Assembly: GCA_016208495.1 (NCBI GenBank)
Contig: JACQXX010000072.1
Span: 1 to 64,000, forward strand
Reading direction: 5' to 3'
Source: Acidobacteriota bacterium
Lineage (GTDB): Bacteria; Acidobacteriota; Blastocatellia; Chloracidobacteriales; Chloracidobacteriaceae
DNA length: 64,000 bases
Below the pieces are notes generated by a model. It ran no database searches. It saw only the letters and a list, made by a program, of their open reading frames with translations, and was not told the DNA's origin. Shown one piece after another: positions 9,120 to 56,560 of the stretch (the stretch's first letter is position 1; every line of letters begins with the position of its first letter). A program made the translations under genes and the position numbers.

Positions 9120-9253
9120 ACTTTTGTTCTTGTAATACCATTTTGGAATGAAGCGGTCGTATTAGAAAACAGTCAAGTCATTCAATAAAATGAACTTAGT
9201 GAACTACTGACTACTGACTACTGACTACTGACTACAAACTGGTATAAGGAGAC
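9120..9253 (+). promoter_or_regulatory. Conserved gene-upstream element, copy A (ATACCATTTTGGAATGAAGCGGTCGTATTAGAAAACAGTCAAGTCATTCAA...GAACTA[CTGACTA]n CAAACTGGTATAAGGAG)
   Basis: The same 5' and 3' flanks, with a variable number of CTGACTA heptamers, recur at 23085-23200 and 56440-56560. Partial copies are at 1-82 and 47270-47300. All copies are oriented towards the downstream plus-strand gene. Confidence 0.5.
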
Positions 9254-10161: not shown

Positions 10162-12006
10162 TCATTCAACCACGTTGTCATTTTTTGCACTGTGATACTG
10201 CAAGAATGCCTGGGTCTCTTGTTTTCCAAGATACCGTTCCAGGTTTCGGCGAGGCGTTTGGGTGAGATCAACCAGAATCAATCCATCCAGTGCCTGATGA
10301 AAGCCTGGATCAACATTAAATCCGAGGAGCTTGCCACCCAGCTTTAAATACTGACGGACCAGAACTGGAACTCCCTTGTGATCAGGTTCAAGCTGGCTGA
10401 TAAAGTCTGAAACAACATCAAGTGAACTCCCGATGGACTCAGCCCAAACAGCAAAATTTGAATTGCTGGTGATGGGTCGAAACGGATGTCGCGGCTGTAT
10501 CAGGGGGAAAATTTCTGGGAGGCTTTCATGTCGGGTCAGGTAGTGAACCAGCATCTGGCGCGATATTTCAGTGTAGTCCTGACTCATACTGACAGCGCCA
10601 AGCAGATATTTGTACTGTGGATTCTGGCAAACAAACGCCCCAATCCCTTTCCAGAGCAGGAGTAACGGACTGAACGATTTCTGGTATTCCGGACGGACAA
10701 ACGACCGGCCAAGCTCCAGCGCCTGAGGGAAATGCTGAAACAAGGTTTTTGAAAATCGAAACAGCGTCGAGGTGTACAGGCCCTTCACGCCCTTTGATTC
10801 AAGAATCTGATCAACTCTGGCCAGACGGTACGCGCCAACAACCTCGGATGTCCTTTGATTCCAGATAAATAAATGCGTGTAATGCTGGTCAAACCAATCC
10901 AGATCGAGTGCCAGTCCGGTGCCTTCGCCAGTCAGCCGAAACGTGAGTTCACGCAACCGGCCAATTTCTTGCATCACCCTGGGAATTTGGGCGAAAGGGG
11001 CCACATAGACGGCAAGTTCACCCGATTCGGCCAGCTTTTGGGATGTGTCAAGTTGATCAACTTCCAGGGCAAGCTGATCAGGAGCGAAACACTGGTTGGA
11101 AACTGGCCTGGGCTGGTGCTGAAACAACGACCACTGACTCAGTCCGGTGATCGAAGCCGGACGGAGTTGGTGTTTGAGGTGATAGGTCCGAAATCGAAGG
11201 TATTCAATCAGTTGCGAATCAGTTTCAAATCGGGTCAGGTGGTCAAATCCAATTGGTTTACCAATGGTGAACGATACTTCCGATTTTTGTTTGTTGAGGC
11301 ATTCCCGTGGAAGGAGCAAGGTTCGGAGCCGCGGATGAGCCAATCCAGCCACTTGAAACAGTCCTGAATTGCGGCCTTCAAAAAAAACTGGGACGACTCC
11401 CGCTTCTGATTTGCGAACCAATCGGGCAATGGTTGGGCTCCAGGGCGGGTCTAAAACGGACCGCTGGTCAAGTGTGAGGTGCGAGACTTCACCCGCCGGG
11501 AACACAATCAACGCACCTCCATCCCGGACCCATTGAATCGCCTGCCGAAGCGGCGCCAGGTTGTGACGTGGAGAATCTGTCGATCCAAAAGGATCAACAA
11601 AAATGCAGTGTGACCGAATTGGGGCAAAAGTACTGAGCAATGAATTGGCCATCAATTTGGCATCTGGCCGCTGCTCAAAAACCTGGCTGCACAAAATCAT
11701 GCCTTCAATGACACCAAAGGGATGGTTGGCGACAATCACCAGCGGGCCCGAAGGTAAAACTACAGATTGGGCCGAAGTGGCCTGATACTGAATCTTGAGC
11801 TGTGACAGTGCCTGATCGAAAAAATCTTTGGCGGAAACTTCAGGAGTGGCGGTCAGAATATGCTGGTAGTGATCAAAAATCTGATCCAGCGCAAGGACTT
11901 TTTTAAACAAACCACTCAGTGCGGGGGGCACGAGTGTGGAAACAGGTGGTGAGGGGAAGGCTTCAATTCGGGAAGCAAAGCTTGATGGGCGACTGCTCAC
12001 AGGCAA
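10162..12006 (-). CDS. Bifunctional acyltransferase, OlsF-like: N-terminal lysophospholipid acyltransferase (LPLAT/PlsC-like) domain plus C-terminal OlsB-type N-acyltransferase (hemolysin-like GNAT) domain
   Basis: The N-terminal half has IVANHPFGVIEG (HX4-5D/E-like box) and IVFPAGEVS (FPEG-type box). The C-terminal half has EVVGAYRLARVDQI...GRSFVRPEYQ, typical of the OlsB/Acetyltransf_5 family. Confidence 0.65.
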   Translation of the reverse strand: MPVSSRPSSFASRIEAFPSPPVSTLVPPALSGLFKKVLALDQIFDHYQHILTATPEVSAKDFFDQALSQLKIQYQATSAQSVVLPSGPLVIVANHPFGVIEGMILCSQVFEQRPDAKLMANSLLSTFAPIRSHCIFVDPFGSTDSPRHNLAPLRQAIQWVRDGGALIVFPAGEVSHLTLDQRSVLDPPWSPTIARLVRKSEAGVVPVFFEGRNSGLFQVAGLAHPRLRTLLLPRECLNKQKSEVSFTIGKPIGFDHLTRFETDSQLIEYLRFRTYHLKHQLRPASITGLSQWSLFQHQPRPVSNQCFAPDQLALEVDQLDTSQKLAESGELAVYVAPFAQIPRVMQEIGRLRELTFRLTGEGTGLALDLDWFDQHYTHLFIWNQRTSEVVGAYRLARVDQILESKGVKGLYTSTLFRFSKTLFQHFPQALELGRSFVRPEYQKSFSPLLLLWKGIGAFVCQNPQYKYLLGAVSMSQDYTEISRQMLVHYLTRHESLPEIFPLIQPRHPFRPITSNSNFAVWAESIGSSLDVVSDFISQLEPDHKGVPVLVRQYLKLGGKLLGFNVDPGFHQALDGLILVDLTQTPRRNLERYLGKQETQAFLQYHSAKNDNVVE

Positions 12007-12828: not shown

Positions 12829-13104
12829 AATTTTGAGGGTTCAGGGTTCAGGGTTCAGGGTTCAGGGAAAATACAACTCTTTCAGCGAGTTCGCCTTTTT
12901 ACCACAGCGGCCATAGTGGTTCACAGCGGCAAATTGAGTTTCCATGGATGACTTTCACCATTTGGAGATTTCCCAGGTGACGCTTTTTCCTGAGCCGGAT
13001 GATTGATCAGGCTCAGGAAAAGCTGCCAGACAGGTTGGAGGTTGAATAGGGCTTGCCGAAAATTGACGTTTTGATCAAGATCTGAATTGGCAAACCTTTT
13101 AGAA

Positions 13105-27989: not shown

Positions 27990-28385
27990 GAAGCGAAGTA
28001 GCGAAAAAGAAGCGAGTGGTGAGTAGCGAGTAGCGAGTAGTCAACCGTTGGGTACTTCAAATGGTTTGTTGTTTTGGTGAGCAGGAAGACCCAAATTGAA
28101 TAATTCAGATTTTAGGGAGTCGGATGGAAATATCATACCACCAGGGTTCAGGGTTCAGGGTTCAGGGTTCAGGGTTCAGGGCCAGATACTCCACGTTGAG
28201 CGGTACCCGCCAGTTCCCCCGTCTTCATCTTGAGTGGGATCAGTCAACTCATCGCCGAAACCCTGAACCCTGACCCCTAACCCCGCTGAACCCTGAACCC
28301 TGAACCCGATTTCAGTGGGATTTTATTTTCTTCTGGGTCCCTTACTACTCGCTACTCACTACTCACTACTCACTAGCCTTATTTG
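27990..28385. repeat. Large nested inverted-repeat region built from tandem units: (AGTAGCGAGT)n ... (GGGTTCA)5 ... centre ... (GAACCCT)n ... (ACTACTCGCT/ACTCACTACT)n
   Basis: Direct reading. The outer decamer arrays (28008-28040 and 28340-28380) and the inner heptamer arrays (28143-28180 and 28261-28300) are mutually reverse-complementary. Confidence 0.85.
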
Positions 28386-30965: not shown

Positions 30966-31043
<78 letters not shown>

Positions 31044-41408: not shown

Positions 41409-41513
41409 GGGGTTGGGGCAGTAAAAAAAGACAAAAGGACGCAAGGGACAAAAAGGACATAAATTCAAAACCCTGAACCCTGAACCCTGAACCCTGATTT
41501 CAGGAGATTTCCT

Positions 41514-42563
41514 ATGCGAAAACGAGTGTATGTGGTCTATACCGGCGGAACGATTGGCATGCGCAAGACGGAAAATGGCTATGCCCCCGCATCTGGCTAT
41601 CTGAAAGAGCAAATGTTGAATTCACCCGTGTTGCGCAATCCGGCCATGCCTGAATACACAATTCACGAGTATGACCAGCTCCTTGATTCAGCCAACATGA
41701 CGCCGGATGACTGGCTGAAAATTGCTGAAGACATTGCCGCGCATCACGATGAATATGATGGCTTTGTGGTGTTGCACGGAACGGACACGATGGCGTACAC
41801 GGCATCGGCGCTGCCGTTTATGCTGCAAGGGCTGCGCAAACCCGTCATTCTCACCGGGTCGCAAATTCCGCTCTGCGAAGTCCGCAATGATGCCCGTGAT
41901 AATCTGATCACCAGTTTAATTCTGGCGGGAAACTACCAGATTCCAGAGGTTTGTCTGTACTTTGGCAACAAACTGTTTCGCGGCTGTCGGTCAGTCAAGG
42001 TCAACGCTGATGGATTACAGGCATTTGCTTCGCCCAACTTTCCACCACTTGGAACCGCAGGCATTGAAATCGAAATTGCCTGGAATCTGGTGCTTGAACC
42101 GCCACCGGAAAACGTTCCGCTCCGGGTTCATCCGATTGTCCATCCGCCATTTGTCGGTGCCGTGCGACTCTTTCCAGGAATTTCAGCAGAAATCATGCAC
42201 AACATTTTGCAGCCGCCACTCAGAGGACTTGTCCTCGAAGCCTATGGCGTAGGCAATGGTCCGGACCGCAATGAAGATTTTATTGCCACATTGAAAGAAG
42301 CTTCTGACCGGGGGGTGGTGATCATCGGCTGTACCCAGTGTTTGCTTGGCAGAGTCAGCCTGGGAAGTTATGCGACTGGAGCTTCGATGGCACGGGCCGG
42401 AGTGGTGAGTGGATTTGATATGACCCCCGAAGCCGCACTGGCCAAGATGTTTCATCTGTTCAGCATGGGGCTGCCGCCGTCGGTCGTGAAACTCCAGATG
42501 CAACGCAATTTACGCGGGGAAATCACTGAGCCGGGGTTTTCAACTGCCACGGGAAGACTGTAA
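41514..42563 (+). CDS. ansA: L-asparaginase, type I (cytoplasmic) family
   Basis: It has the N-terminal catalytic motif VYTGGTIGM and HGTDTMAYTASAL, with no signal peptide. CAGGAG lies 7 nt upstream. Confidence 0.9.
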   Translation: MRKRVYVVYTGGTIGMRKTENGYAPASGYLKEQMLNSPVLRNPAMPEYTIHEYDQLLDSANMTPDDWLKIAEDIAAHHDEYDGFVVLHGTDTMAYTASALPFMLQGLRKPVILTGSQIPLCEVRNDARDNLITSLILAGNYQIPEVCLYFGNKLFRGCRSVKVNADGLQAFASPNFPPLGTAGIEIEIAWNLVLEPPPENVPLRVHPIVHPPFVGAVRLFPGISAEIMHNILQPPLRGLVLEAYGVGNGPDRNEDFIATLKEASDRGVVIIGCTQCLLGRVSLGSYATGASMARAGVVSGFDMTPEAALAKMFHLFSMGLPPSVVKLQMQRNLRGEITEPGFSTATGRL

Positions 42564-42628
42564 AAAGAACGAGTGGCGAGTAGTCTGACTACTCGCTATC
42601 TCGCTATCTCGCTACTCACTCTTCTGTG

Positions 42629-43438
42629 CTACTCTGGCGGGTCATACCCGGCCAGCAGGTTGTACCAGCCTTTGGTCATATGGTCAAAATCAGAGATCAG
42701 TTGCGCGCGGAGCAGGGAAAGTTCGGGGATTTCGGCGGCTCGCGCGCGTCCGCGACGCCGGGCCGCCTCAGAAGGGTTTTGGAGTGGGAGTGGCGGTGGA
42801 TATCCTTCGGCAATCGAGTCAAAAATGTACCAGCCCTGGGCACTGTCAGAATCCGCGCCGTAAAACATGCCATATTCGCCGTTGAGCGGGTCATAGACGA
42901 CAGCGATTTGCCAGGGCATTCCAAACACTTTGCGTTGGGTAGCCCGATCCGTCCCAGACATAAACACGCCAAACCCTGGATGGGTGTGATACCAGCCAAC
43001 CACACGTAATTGCACTTCCTTGCCTTGTTCCTGAGCCCGGTTTTGCAGCCGTTCGATGTGTTGTGAAACGGCCATCAAGTCATCAGCTCCCATTTCAACG
43101 TGAGTTGGGCCGGCGGTGGCTTCCTGAGCCGGAATCGCATCAATAATAGTGGTATAAGTGACTTCGCGGTCGTTTTCCTTCCACGAATACACATTGCCGA
43201 CCAGGATTCCACCGCATTCATTTTCACCCATAAATGCTCTGACGAGTGAAGCCTCTTCGGATTGAGTCTGGGGAAGAGCCATATCAGGTGGCGCGGCCAT
43301 CAGGATTTTTTCTTCGGCCTGACGGGCCAGGTAAATCCTCAGTCCGGCTGGATCGGGCTGTCCAAGGGTTTCAAGAACGTGCGGCAGTGGACGTTCCAGA
43401 GGCTTTACGTCACGAACTTTTTTGATTACGAAGGTCAT
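42629..43438 (-). CDS. JAB/MPN+/JAMM-family zinc metallopeptidase (deubiquitinase-like)
   Basis: It has the complete JAMM motif: E in ENECGGILVG, then HTHPGFGVFMSGTD (HxHx7Sx2D). It is 269 aa and lies immediately downstream of the E2-like gene on the same strand. Confidence 0.8.
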   Translation of the reverse strand: MTFVIKKVRDVKPLERPLPHVLETLGQPDPAGLRIYLARQAEEKILMAAPPDMALPQTQSEEASLVRAFMGENECGGILVGNVYSWKENDREVTYTTIIDAIPAQEATAGPTHVEMGADDLMAVSQHIERLQNRAQEQGKEVQLRVVGWYHTHPGFGVFMSGTDRATQRKVFGMPWQIAVVYDPLNGEYGMFYGADSDSAQGWYIFDSIAEGYPPPLPLQNPSEAARRRGRARAAEIPELSLLRAQLISDFDHMTKGWYNLLAGYDPPE

Positions 43439-43510
43439 AGTCAGGGTTCAGGGTTCAGGGTTCAGGGTTCAGGGTTCAGTGAACAGGCAATTTGACAAGG
43501 TTTCTGATTC
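43439..43510. repeat. (GGGTTCA)x5 array in the 72-nt spacer between the E2-like and JAB genes
   Basis: Direct reading. Confidence 0.9.
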
Positions 43511-44068
43511 CTAGCGATTGCGGATTCGGAACCGCCCGCCTGGCCCGCCGCTGTCTTGCTGGGTGTTGACCCGTTTGATGACAAACGTGTGGGATGGCTG
43601 TTCACCAGGGGTTGGGAGCAACGCCTGGTCGCTCGGGAACAGCGTCGGGTTGGCGTAAAACCAGTCAGCGGCTTTGTAGTTGGCAATGCTATATGGATCA
43701 ACAATTTGCGGGTCAAATTGAAAAATACGCGCCAGTTTGATCACAAATGAAGCCAGCCCTTCGCGGAAATCCCAGCTTCCGATACACACCTTGCCGTCCG
43801 GCCATACGTGCGGATGAAAAATCGGCGTCATCTCGTGCATCATCACAATTGGTTTTTCAAACGGATGTTGTGGGGAAAGAATGATCCGGATCCGATGTTC
43901 GTCCCGAGTGGTTGTCGGGCTGACATAACACCGAATCTTAAAGGTAATGATGTATTCGGTTGGCGGAATATCATTGCCTTGCCAGTGAATGACTGGACCG
44001 CGAATGGTTTTCATTTCTTCGAAATCAGCCGCGAGGCGGGCCATGCGCACATCGTCAGGGGTTCCCAT
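43511..44068 (-). CDS. Ubiquitin-conjugating enzyme (UBC/E2)-fold protein, eukaryote-like
   Basis: The 185-aa protein aligns by eye to canonical E2s: HWQGNDIPP (HWQATI), HPFEKPIV (YPFKPPKV), IFHPHVWPDGKVCIGSW (IYHPNINSNGSICLDIL, catalytic Cys) and DPQIVDP (DPNPDDP). The RBS GAGGAAG is 7 nt upstream. Confidence 0.8.
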   Translation of the reverse strand: MGTPDDVRMARLAADFEEMKTIRGPVIHWQGNDIPPTEYIITFKIRCYVSPTTTRDEHRIRIILSPQHPFEKPIVMMHEMTPIFHPHVWPDGKVCIGSWDFREGLASFVIKLARIFQFDPQIVDPYSIANYKAADWFYANPTLFPSDQALLPTPGEQPSHTFVIKRVNTQQDSGGPGGRFRIRNR

Positions 44069-44485
44069 GTTGACTTCCTCTTGCTCTTAAACTGTGGTGG
44101 ATATCGTGTTTGTGTTCAGGGGCACTGTAAATTCAAATTACACCAAAACCTGGCTAAAAACACAAAAAGTTTGTTTTGCAAAAAAATGGATCGAAATTCT
44201 GACCGTGGAACTGATGAAACGCTACAACCAATTTCTTTTCAATACCATACCAGTACTGAGACACTGGCGGAGGCTTTTGGGTTCCACCCGCTGGAGCGAA
44301 ATTTCCGGCATCCGGCATAGGAGAGCCTGTGCAAGATCAACTAAAGTGCTGCAAATAAAGAATGAAGAATGAAGAATGAAGAAACGCTAAATAGTTCTTA
44401 TTCAATAGAATAGAATCGGAAACCACTGCTCGAATCATTTTTCAACGCCTGTCTTCAAATCAATTTTCTTCCATCAAAAAGTGCC

Positions 44486-45289
44486 ATGCCTCACTCATCC
44501 GAATCAACCAATAAAGCCGCAAACCCGCTCGAAGCCGAAGGACAACAGCGAGCCAGACGTGTCCAGCAGATGTTTTCCGAAATCGCACCCCGCTATGACC
44601 TGCTCAACCATCTGCTTTCAATGAATATTGATAAGCGCTGGCGACGCTTTACCGTGCGCAAACTGCAGGATGTCCTTGATCAGCCTGGAGCGACCGCGCT
44701 TGATATTTGTTGTGGGACCGGCGATTTGTCGCTCGAACTTGGTCAGAAAGTGCCCACCATCGGCGTTGATTTTTGCCATCCGATGCTGGTGATTGGGCTT
44801 GAAAAAGTGCGCAAGACCGGGTTGCCGGTTCGCTTATGTGCCGGTGATGCTTTGAACCTGCCGTTTCAGGATGCCCGGTTCGATGCCGTCACCAATGCGT
44901 TCGGCCTTCGAAACGTGACCGATGTCGAACGTGGACTGGCCGAAGTATACCGCGTCCTCAAACCTGGAGGCCGGGCCGCCATTCTGGAGTTTTCTCGTCC
45001 AATTCTCCCAGGGTTTCGTGAAGCCTTTCAATGGTACTTTAACCACGTTTTGCCCCGCATTGGCGGTATGATTTCGGGCTCCAGTATGGCGTATACCTAC
45101 CTGCCGACTTCGGTGAAAAGCTTCCCTGATCAAAAACAACTGGCTGACCTGATGCGCAAAGTCGGGTTTACCGACGTCAAATATCATAACCTTTCAGGCG
45201 GTATTGCTGCCCTGCATTTGGGAAACAAGCCGAAGAATGAAGAATTGAGAATGAAGAATGAAGAATTGAGAATGAAGAATGAAGAATGA
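44486..45289 (+). CDS. ubiE: Demethylmenaquinone/ubiquinone C-methyltransferase UbiE/MenG
   Basis: It has the class I SAM-MTase motif LDICCGTGDLS and UbiE-specific N-terminal and C-terminal blocks (FSEIAPRYDLLN, RVLKPGGR). The last ~17 codons (KNEELRMKNEELRMKNEE) are encoded by the GAAGAATGAA tandem array, so the true stop is uncertain. Confidence 0.85.
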   Translation: MPHSSESTNKAANPLEAEGQQRARRVQQMFSEIAPRYDLLNHLLSMNIDKRWRRFTVRKLQDVLDQPGATALDICCGTGDLSLELGQKVPTIGVDFCHPMLVIGLEKVRKTGLPVRLCAGDALNLPFQDARFDAVTNAFGLRNVTDVERGLAEVYRVLKPGGRAAILEFSRPILPGFREAFQWYFNHVLPRIGGMISGSSMAYTYLPTSVKSFPDQKQLADLMRKVGFTDVKYHNLSGGIAALHLGNKPKNEELRMKNEELRMKNEE

Positions 45290-45470
45290 AGAAATAAACT
45301 GGTGCTTGGTTCTTAGTGCCTGGTTTCGAAAACCCGGAACCCGGAACCCGGAACCCGGAACCCGGAACCCGGAACCCGGAACCCGGAACCCGGAACCCGG
45401 AACCCGGAACCCGGAACCCGGAACCCGGAACCCGGTGTATTCTTCATTCTTCATTCCCACACCGTCCGTT
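45226..45470. repeat. Nested inverted repeat: (GAAGAATGAA/GAATTGAGAAT)n ... (GGAACCCG)x14 ... TTCATTCTTCATTC
   Basis: Direct reading. The octamer array spans 45322-45435. Confidence 0.9.
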
Positions 45471-52017: not shown

Positions 52018-52245
52018 AAGGGTTTCGGGTTTCGGGTTTCGGGTTTTCGAAGAGGGCGCGGTTCAAAGCAACAGCGCCCTTACTTTTTGTCACCTTGTCA
52101 CCTTGTCATTCTGTCACCTTGTCATATTCATATCCTTCAAAGAAATTGGACAGCGACAGATGATTTTCCTCTGTCGCTTTTTTGTCGTCAGGGTACACAA
52201 TGAACCCTGAACCCTGAACCCTGAACCCCGAACCCTAACTGCTTT
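52018..52245. repeat. Arrays (GGGTTTC)x4 ... (GTCACCTT)x4 ... unique ... (GAACCCT)x5
   Basis: Direct reading. Confidence 0.85.
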
Positions 52246-56439: not shown

Positions 56440-56560
56440 AGCGGTCATATTAGAAAATAGTCAAGTTATTGAACCCAGTGAAGGTAGTGAACCATTGACC
56501 ACTGACCACTGACCACTGACTACTGACTACTGACTACTGACTACAAGCTGGCATAACAGA
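56440..56560 (+). promoter_or_regulatory. Conserved gene-upstream element, copy C (AAAGCGGTCATATTAGAAAATAGTCAAGTTATTGAA...(CTGACCA)x3(CTGACTA)x4 CAAGCTGGCATAAC)
   Basis: It aligns with copies A and B. The heptamer array here is 7 units, including CTGACCA variants. Confidence 0.5.

Follow-up and report, generated by a model that had tools for sequence, protein, structure and literature searches.

The Acidobacteriota contig JACQXX010000072.1 (assembly GCA_016208495.1; Blastocatellia, Chloracidobacteriaceae) encodes, within the 64,000-nucleotide (nt) stretch analyzed here (positions 1 to 64,000, hereafter the window), an adjacent pair of eukaryote-like proteins: a ubiquitin-conjugating enzyme (E2) and a metallopeptidase of the JAB/JAMM type (JAB). 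A preliminary description, made from the sequence of the window, presented the pair as either a fragment of a larger module that borrows a distal activating enzyme (E1) and ubiquitin-like modifier (Ubl), or an E2-JAB two-component variant not yet characterized. Comparison with related genomes indicates that it is probably one locus of a five-component system whose operon has been broken. The features of the locus are listed below, with lengths of proteins in amino acids (aa) and with contigs and loci used for comparison given by their L numbers.

43511..44068, minus strand: E2 gene, encoding a UBC-fold ubiquitin-conjugating enzyme of 185 aa (open reading frame (ORF) and translation)
42629..43438, minus strand: JAB gene, encoding a JAMM/MPN+ metallopeptidase of 269 aa, Rpn11/CSN5/BRCC36-like (ORF, Pfam)
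43439..43510, minus strand: E2-JAB spacer, 72 nt (sequence, Tandem Repeats Finder)
44069..44485, no strand assigned: divergent E2/ubiE intergenic region, 417 nt, AT-richer (composition, sequence)
44486..45289, plus strand: ubiE/menG-type methyltransferase gene (Pfam Ubie_methyltran on orthologous calls)
41514..42563, plus strand: type I asparaginase gene ansA (Pfam Asparaginase on contigs L009-L011)

The E2 and JAB genes share the minus strand and both reading frames are intact. Their coordinates and the 72-nt spacer had been reported exactly, and the motifs quoted for both proteins are present, namely HPFEKP, HPHVWPDGKVCIGSW, and HWQ in the E2. The Pfam UQ_con model scores the E2 at 20.7 bits, under its cutoff of 27, a result that on its own meant the claim of an E2 core preserved “almost residue-for-residue” needed testing. 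A profile of 20 family sequences matches Rad6/UBE2A, UBE2T, and UBE2L6 at E values of about 4e-12 and places Cys94 on the catalytic Cys of Rad6. Seven residues are invariant in this 20-sequence alignment (P81, I82, F83, H84, P85, C94, and W98), and the catalytic-loop motif reads H84-P85-H86 (window 43811-43819), a His variant of HPN. The AlphaFold (AF2) model built from the same family alignment has a mean predicted local distance difference test score (pLDDT) of 77.7, with block means of about 85-94 over residues 1-150, and the best 50 Foldseek matches to this model in the PDB are all E2 enzymes. Family profile and predicted structure confirm the 185-aa protein as a UBC-fold E2, as had been proposed, with Cys94 as its predicted catalytic residue. 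Close relatives of the E2 are few: a homologue search among 5.8 billion proteins returned 27 clusters, nearly all from Acidobacteriota (Blastocatellia or Chloracidobacterium), and a search of 1.84 billion 50%-identity representatives returned 3 matches at E≤1e-30, 126 at E≤1e-10, and 522 at E≤1e-3.

The second protein carries the quoted motif HTHPGFGVFMSGTD and exceeds the cutoffs of two Pfam models (Prok-JAB, 34.6 bits; JAB, 32.4 bits). Its active site comprises E73, H150-x-H152, S160, and D163; among 28 homologues, E73, H150, and H152 do not vary, and conservation reaches at least 90% at S160 and D163. The top PDB sequence match is the Rpn11 homologue of Caldiarchaeum (CsRpn11, 6fjv), followed by Rpn11 and CSN5. 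In the AF2 model (pLDDT 79.6), an MPN core is followed by long C-terminal helices (221-262), and the best Foldseek matches are BRCC36, CSN5, CsRpn11, and Rpn11. Sequence comparison confirms the 269-aa protein as a JAMM/MPN+ peptidase whose active site is complete, in agreement with the zinc site recognized in the preliminary description. Ratios of nonsynonymous to synonymous substitution rates (dN/dS) between the window and Blastocatellia SSF51 (L005) are 0.06 for the E2 and 0.12 for JAB; between near-identical strains, 30 nucleotide differences in the E2 gene change no amino acid and 52 in the JAB gene change two. Both genes are under strong purifying selection.

No E1 or Ubl gene had been seen in the window, and our searches agree. 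The E1, the Ubl, and a small zinc-ribbon protein (pZn) of a related operon (L002), used as tblastn queries against the 64-kb window, gave no match (best E 0.74); a scan for small ORFs ending in Gly-Gly between 41000 and 46500 found none but a trivial 25-aa ORF within ansA; and neither method revealed a Ubl-like ORF in the intergenic region 44069..44485. The absence of both partners from 64 kb, together with the retention of E2 and JAB as a pair in at least five genomes, could suggest a self-contained two-component system that operates without a dedicated E1 or Ubl. Scanning a single genome for each GTDB species yielded 63 loci, which, classified by tblastn, place the pair in a different context. 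Seven loci from Blastocatellia or other Acidobacteriota (L002/L022, L021, and L023-L027) contain the five-gene operon E1-pZn-Ubl-E2-JAB, and an eighth (L028) contains E1-pZn-Ubl-E2, no JAB being found within its flank. In one such operon, from a Blastocatellia metagenome-assembled genome (MAG), a ThiF-type E1 of 424 aa, a 98-aa protein, and an 82-aa Ubl accompany an E2 and a JAB that are 73% and 54% identical to those of the window by local alignment; over the full operons the identities are 69-73% for E2 and 48-54% for JAB. Over 40 more distantly related loci keep the order E1-(Ubl)-E2-JAB; they represent Cyanobacteria, Beta- and Gammaproteobacteria, Terriglobia, Anaerolineae, Leptospirae, and Actinomycetes and include those of Oscillatoria PCC 10802 and Photobacterium lipolyticum, in which the ORFs were inspected.

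The remaining arrangements lack the operon. The window and five other genomes carry only E2-JAB, divergent from ubiE, and four Chloracidobacterium-type genomes carry ubiE and E2 without JAB alongside. The preliminary description had suggested examining how far the neighborhood of the pair is conserved; its ubiE side is shared by these six genomes, and the pair itself is also found within the full operons. Adjacency of ubiE and E2 (window, L001, L005, L016-L020, and L029) extends across genera of Blastocatellia and Chloracidobacterium, including genomes whose ubiE genes are only 59-76% identical. On the distribution of these locus classes, the five-gene operon is read as ancestral and the arrangement in the clade of the window as a derived, split state.

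Other genes and labels were noted at these loci. In seven loci (L002 5633-7700; L021, L023-L027), a PP2C phosphatase gene precedes the full operon in divergent orientation, and genes for an FHA protein, a coiled-coil protein, and a peptidase M19 are confined to L002 and the four loci most closely related to it (L021, L023, L025, and L026). None of these four genes occurs at split loci; their presence may be no more than synteny and was not counted as a sign of function. Contigs L014, L016, L017, L023, and L026, labeled “uncultured Clostridia bacterium” or “Actinomycetota bacterium”, are 69-99% identical in this Acidobacteriota system, and one of those so labeled is itself named WN_Acidobacteria_scaffold; the labels probably reflect mis-binning or mislabeling.

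The missing genes are found elsewhere in the genomes of relatives. In Blastocatellia SSF51 (GCA_019695185.1), the closest sequenced relative (E2 83% and JAB 71% identical to those of the window), contig 9 carries PilM-p590-CinA-E1-p104-Ubl and contig 88 carries E2-JAB divergent from ubiE. In Chloracidobacterium sp. CP2_5A (GCA_002254845.1), E1-pZn-Ubl lies on contig 33, ubiE and E2 on contig 19, and the JAB orthologue on contig 5 (L019, L076, and L083), a three-way split of the system in Chloracidobacterium. On its complete chromosome, Chloracidobacterium thermophilum (L008, CP072632.1, 155329-172582) has an E1 gene followed by genes for a protein of 107 aa and a Ubl of 97 aa, and neither E2 nor JAB is encoded near them; the E2 homologue search returned no match from any contig longer than 1 Mb, and the genome scan returned no C. 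thermophilum record. Every orthologue of the pair that we examined sits in a genome or operon that also holds E1 and Ubl, and Chloracidobacterium retains all parts even though E2 and JAB are no longer adjacent there. An E2 fold, moreover, has no known way to charge itself. A two-component system is accordingly very improbable, and the proposal of an uncharacterized E2-JAB variant is not supported; the partners seem to be missing because only one locus of a split system is in view. The other half of that earlier proposal, a fragmented module with a distal E1 and Ubl, is supported by the assemblies of the two relatives and by a contig that co-occurs with the lineage of the window.

This contig, L077/L078, has the synteny PilM-CinA-E1-pZn-Ubl. 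The exact E2 sequence of the window was found on contigs of the European Nucleotide Archive assemblies ERZ27296148 and ERZ926129 and of run ERR1879305, and L077/L078 is present in ERZ27296148 and ERR1879305 alongside these window-identical E2 contigs. Its E1 is 66% identical to that of SSF51. Just upstream of the E1 gene lies a (TGAACCC) x 4 array, the commonest repeat unit of the window. The tetranucleotide correlation of L077/L078 with the window is 0.937, compared with 0.96-0.97 for the window's own 13-kb pieces and 0.89-0.92 for SSF51 contigs. We infer that the organism of the window carries a second locus, E1-pZn-Ubl; the evidence is strong but indirect.

Among the partner proteins encoded at the E1-pZn-Ubl loci, the E1 contains a ThiF domain only, with no rhodanese domain by Pfam, and its best PDB matches are UBA7, MoeB, SAE2, and UBA1. 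The 11 Blastocatellia E1s listed all contain a Cys in the motif SRYDSC, and the cyanobacterial and Photobacterium enzymes have RYSC at this site; by its position this Cys is the putative thioester residue. The Ubl aligns with ubiquitin and NEDD8 through to the C-terminal Gly-Gly, its best matches being ubiquitin, NEDD8, and Rad60-SLD. In all 12 related loci it is 82-102 aa long and ends in FLNTRGG followed by 1-21 variable residues (for example, L077 7864-8115; L084 5838-6146; L008 9798-10091; L002 9723-9971). Since residues extend beyond the Gly-Gly, the Ubl is a precursor that needs a processing peptidase. It is also the most conserved component: 75-94% identical, compared over the same pairs with 66-86% for E2, 48-81% for JAB, 47-75% for E1, and 33-61% for pZn. 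The pZn protein, of about 100 aa, combines an N-terminal hydrophobic membrane helix with a C-terminal 4-Cys ribbon, RCExCHQxD-x8-CxRC, in which R80, C81, E82, C84, H85, Q86, D88, C97, R99, and C100 are invariant. By ligand count it is not a RING finger, which is binuclear with eight ligands, as opposed to a single 4-Cys ribbon.

Membrane and zinc modules were also observed elsewhere in the family. Cyanobacterial JABs carry membrane segments at their C-termini, and downstream of them lie genes for two membrane proteins with Cys/His clusters; in many proteobacterial E2s, the C-terminus is a zinc ribbon of the form CxxC...CxxC. Loci with such modules include L037 (10545-11981 and 11995-12939), L070 (7380-8219 and 9842-10468), and, in their E2 tails, L031, L032, L040, L041, L046, and L050-L052. 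A membrane-plus-zinc element seems to recur across the family.

Taken together, we assign the pair as the E2 and the processing and deconjugating JAMM peptidase of a five-component eukaryote-like Ubl system in Blastocatellia, the operon of which has been broken into two loci, and we hold this reading with a probability of about 0.8. The enzymatic steps can be proposed from homology with a reconstituted archaeal system. In this model, JAB would trim the residues that follow ...LNTRGG in the Ubl, exposing Gly-Gly; the distal ThiF-type E1 would adenylate the Ubl and take it as a thioester on the conserved Cys of SRYDSC; and the Ubl would then pass to Cys94 of the E2 encoded in the window. The E2 would transfer it to amino groups of target proteins, possibly with pZn acting at the membrane as an adaptor or E3, although pZn might instead be a substrate. 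Finally, JAB would remove the Ubl again, reversing conjugation.

The archaeal precedent is the Caldiarchaeum operon, encoding ubiquitin, E1, E2, a small RING-finger E3, and an Rpn11 homologue, which was reconstituted in vitro, its E1, E2, and RING protein ubiquitylating a test substrate (PMC5654768). Structures of CsRpn11 have been solved, and the enzyme cleaves pro-ubiquitin after Gly-Gly and deconjugates; JAMMs that cluster near Rpn11 occur in operons with homologues of ubiquitin, E1, and E2 (PMC6043591). The Blastocatellia system shares with the Caldiarchaeum and Asgard operons a classical UBC E2, a stand-alone Rpn11-like JAMM, and, in Blastocatellia relatives of the window, a single-domain Ubl precursor with residues after the Gly-Gly and a compact ThiF-type E1. 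In contrast with the Caldiarchaeum operon, the Blastocatellia version is bacterial, has HPH rather than HPN, and in the split-type genomes distributes its genes over two or three loci, and pZn, with its membrane helix and 4-Cys ribbon, stands in the place of the RING finger. The RING E3 defines the archaeal operon but is not required of every bacterial version.

Several points weigh against our assignment. The window and the E1-pZn-Ubl locus were not found joined on one molecule, and the link between them consists of metagenome co-occurrence, repeat signature, composition, and phylogenetic distance; both cases in which the split was seen within one genome are MAGs, in which binning errors are possible. 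The Asn of HPN is replaced by His across the Blastocatellia clade, while distant family members keep HPN. Human UBE2W also has HPH, which is a lead rather than a test. pZn matches no Pfam family and, up to an E value of 10, no PDB sequence, and no recognizable RING or other E3 is encoded with the system. A scan of the locus for sigma-70 consensus sequences found no promoter-like sites and a terminator scan gave a chance-level count, results that are uninformative. The searchable literature contains no biochemical test of any bacterial member of the E2/Rpn11-type family.

Bacterial systems of this kind have been predicted. Zuin et al. 2014 (PMC4197634) cite Burroughs, Iyer, and Aravind 2011 (Mol Biosyst) for operons in Actinobacteria, Planctomycetes, and Acidobacteria, and Hennell James et al. 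2017 (PMC5654768) cite the same study for some complete bacterial operons. As the citing papers describe them, the predicted bacterial Ub-E1-E2-(RING)-JAB operons have the same gene set and include the same phylum, and L002 and the other full operons fit this description. The family to which the window belongs is, on these accounts, most probably that of the Burroughs 2011 operons. The kind of system is thus already known, predicted in bacteria and shown by experiment in archaea; what is unusual here is the dispersal of genes with all components kept, the membrane zinc-ribbon partner, the HPH variant, and a motif shared by the ends of several of the proteins.

Among solved structures, the best sequence and fold matches are the eukaryotic E2s Rad6/UBE2A, UBE2T, and UBE2L6 and the peptidases Rpn11, CSN5, and BRCC36; BRCC36 and Rpn11, like the JAB of the window, have C-terminal helices after the MPN core. 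The likeness to these eukaryotic proteins has limits: identity is only about 15-23%, and there is no sign of a partner MPN- subunit or of a lid complex. A sulfur-carrier system with a JAB, in which there is no E2, the Ubl is like ThiS/MoaD, and the E1 is often fused to rhodanese, was rejected, given the presence of a UBC E2, a Ubl that resembles ubiquitin and NEDD8, and an E1 without rhodanese.

The preliminary description compared the pair with CBASS Cap2/Cap3 and with Bil- and Bub-type systems, and all experimentally studied bacterial E1/E2/JAB systems do act in defense (10.1101/2023.09.26.559546, 10.1101/2023.09.04.556158). The pair might accordingly belong to an anti-phage module that, upon infection, attaches the Ubl to proteins of the phage or the host. 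The family is patchy over many phyla outside Blastocatellia, as defense systems often are, and E2 and JAB give weak matches to the CBASS models of PADLOC (E 2e-4 to 6e-4). Iyer et al. 2006 divided bacterial E1/E2/JAB/Ubl operons into types 6a-6e, in which the E2s depart from classical HPN; types 6c and 6d later became Bil systems. BilABCD (type I, Collimonas; type II, Ensifer aridi, formerly CEHH/6C) has the same Ubl, E2, JAB, and E1 roles, and residues after the conserved Gly of its Ubl are removed by its JAB enzyme. The Bil E2 is, however, unrelated in sequence: hhalign of our E2 family against the Ensifer aridi BilB gives a probability of 0.07%, PADLOC finds no BilB, and the BilC model matches only at E 0.026 (12.1 bits). 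The PADLOC BilD model matches the family E1 at E 2e-7, only over a generic nucleotide-binding stretch (34-96). The E2s of Bil types I (6d) and II (CEHH) depart from the classical pattern, having the CEHH motif or, in place of the HPN His, a conserved His downstream of the Cys, whereas the family E2 retains the classical His; and Bil systems are compact defense operons, whereas the genes of the window's system are dispersed. On these grounds membership in Bil was rejected.

Type II CBASS, in which Cap2 is an E2-E1 fusion and Cap3 a JAB, shares bacterial E1, E2, and JAB chemistry with the present system, together with the weak PADLOC and NCBIfam matches. It differs in that the E2 of the window is a stand-alone protein of 185 aa, no ThiF domain is encoded in the window, there is no CD-NTase or effector gene, and a dedicated Ubl is the modifier in place of the cyclase's own C-terminus. 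The NCBIfam cap2_3 score of 21 bits compares with a cutoff of 320, the PADLOC matches are weak and generic, and membership in CBASS was likewise rejected. No cyclase, effector, or other PADLOC-recognized defense gene lies nearby. Viral contigs, 2.9 million of which were searched, contain no relatives, and a phage origin was discarded. The genes, although dispersed, are kept, and the synteny of ubiE and E2 is conserved across genera. The modifier, moreover, is the most conserved component (75-94%, compared with 47-75% for E1), the opposite of an arms-race pattern. A defense role is consequently unlikely, and the nearest comparison is with prokaryotic ubiquitin systems having a classical E2 and an Rpn11-type peptidase rather than with CBASS, Bil, or Bub.

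Several components of the proposed five-component system share a short strand-like motif, [TKSRQ]F.[IVL][KRQ], that recurs at protein ends. The C-terminal tail of the E2 (about 155-185) is disordered and contains two motifs of the TF.IK type, 161 TFVIK and 179 RFRIR, in the contexts HTFVIKRV and GRFRIRNR (residues 161-165 and 179-183; window 43523-43589). JAB begins with MTFVIKKV (residues 1-6; window 43421-43438), which is unstructured in the AF2 model. In pZn the motif directly precedes the zinc ribbon and its Phe is invariant (L077 7480-7797; L002 9400-9696), and the E1s of L077 and L084 carry it at their N-termini (TSFVIKPE and SQFTIKPD). E2 and JAB of the window contain five matches, compared with 0.13 expected from the window's other proteins. 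Cyanobacterial and proteobacterial relatives have I.W.[DE] instead at the two corresponding ends, E2 tail and JAB N-terminus (QIIWGD/IVWEDC; ARVQWRE/VIEWREQ); since both ends have changed together in other phyla, the motif co-varies. The Ubl is the sole component without it. The pattern suggests that the motif may be a common docking strand.

A wider proposal, which we put forward tentatively and regard as somewhat doubtful, is that the Blastocatellia system is vertically inherited and dispersed and acts on the cell's own proteins at membrane sites, in a housekeeping or regulatory rather than an anti-phage role. The sequence of its modifier would be constrained much as that of ubiquitin is, the novel protein pZn would be its adaptor or E3, and [TK]F.[IV][KR] (I.W.[DE] elsewhere) would dock E2, JAB, pZn, and in some lineages E1 on a common site, for example on the Ubl, in the manner of a SUMO-interaction motif. 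Integration into host physiology is favored by the retention of the dispersed genes and by the high conservation of the modifier.

The surroundings of the pair bear on its origin. The preliminary description placed it between two convergent housekeeping genes, but ansA and ubiE are co-oriented, both on the plus strand, with the E2-JAB pair antisense between them. ansA is convergent with the JAB gene and adjoins it only in the window's own species-level lineage, not being next to JAB in L005, L016, L017, or L029. ubiE, the divergent neighbor of E2 in every split-type genome, is useful as a synteny marker and is not a known member of the conjugation system; the 417-nt region between the two genes presumably holds the promoters of both.

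Heptamer arrays beside and between the genes, and an operon clearly fragmented relative to other lineages, could mean that the pair arrived recently as an accessory or mobile cassette, an accessory insertion having been suggested, or that it is a decaying remnant of a broken operon. The arrays had been described as flanking and separating the pair. Two are as stated: (GAACCCT) x 5.6 in the spacer, directly upstream of the JAB start codon (43441-43479), and (TTCATTC) x 4 upstream of the E2 gene (44354-44383). By Tandem Repeats Finder, the unit of the repeat that lies 3' of JAB (42592-42614) is an 8-mer and not a heptamer. Such arrays are a property of the whole window, which contains 20 of at least three exact copies, mostly intergenic (among others at 1-77, 9203-9230, 12836-12863, 28142-28176, 41469-41497, 45331-45435, 52201-52228, and 56517-56544), with the unit families GAACCCT, CTGACTA, AATGAAG, and AACCCGG. 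The GC content of the pair, 0.52-0.56, is like that of its flanks; no integrase and no flanking tRNA were found, the sole tRNA of the window lying 11 kb off at 30966-31040. Adjacency of E2 to ubiE is shared with distant genomes, both frames are intact with conserved catalytic residues, and the low dN/dS values and the 30 silent differences between strains in the E2 gene speak against decay. Recent insertion or decay is therefore highly improbable, and the interpretation of the pair as an accessory insertion fails.

The repeats themselves vary. In the near-identical metagenome contigs L009, L010, and L011, E2 ends at 10558 and JAB starts at 10617, separated by an array of three copies (L009 10592-10612), so that 5.6 copies in the window as against 3 in these contigs account for spacers of 72 and 58 nt; the GAACCCT array varies in length within the species. 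At its 3' end, the ubiE ORF enters a heptamer array of 21-nt periodicity (45232-45293), giving a C-terminal tail of NEELRMK-NEELRMK-NEE, and the ORF encodes 267 aa in the window and 252 aa in the near-identical L009; the length of the repeat thus alters the end of the protein. SSF51 has similar arrays with other units, and the GC-richer or AT-rich relatives L029, L002, and L008 have none. The arrays resemble the short tandemly repeated repetitive (STRR) heptamers of heterocystous cyanobacteria.

The bacterial E1/E2/deubiquitinase systems tested so far (CBASS Cap2/Cap3, Bil, and Bub) are all anti-phage, and the system closest to eukaryotic ubiquitylation has been studied only in uncultured archaea. 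In the present system, the nearest solved relatives of the E2, the E1, and the modifier are eukaryotic, and that of the JAMM peptidase is the Caldiarchaeum Rpn11 homologue. The parts list provides C94 of the E2 and E73, H150, and H152 of JAB as targets for mutation. Because the Ubl ends in ...TR-GG, trypsin leaves Gly-Gly on modified lysines, so that standard enrichment of Lys-Gly-Gly (K-GG) remnants should work and remnant proteomics should reveal the targets of the modifier. For annotation, the lesson is that an orphan-looking E2-JAB pair calls for searching the whole genome for E1 and Ubl before any new type of system is put forward. For the biology of the Blastocatellia, an operon lost in one bacterial class while every part is kept under strong selection is what would be expected of a system integrated into its host.

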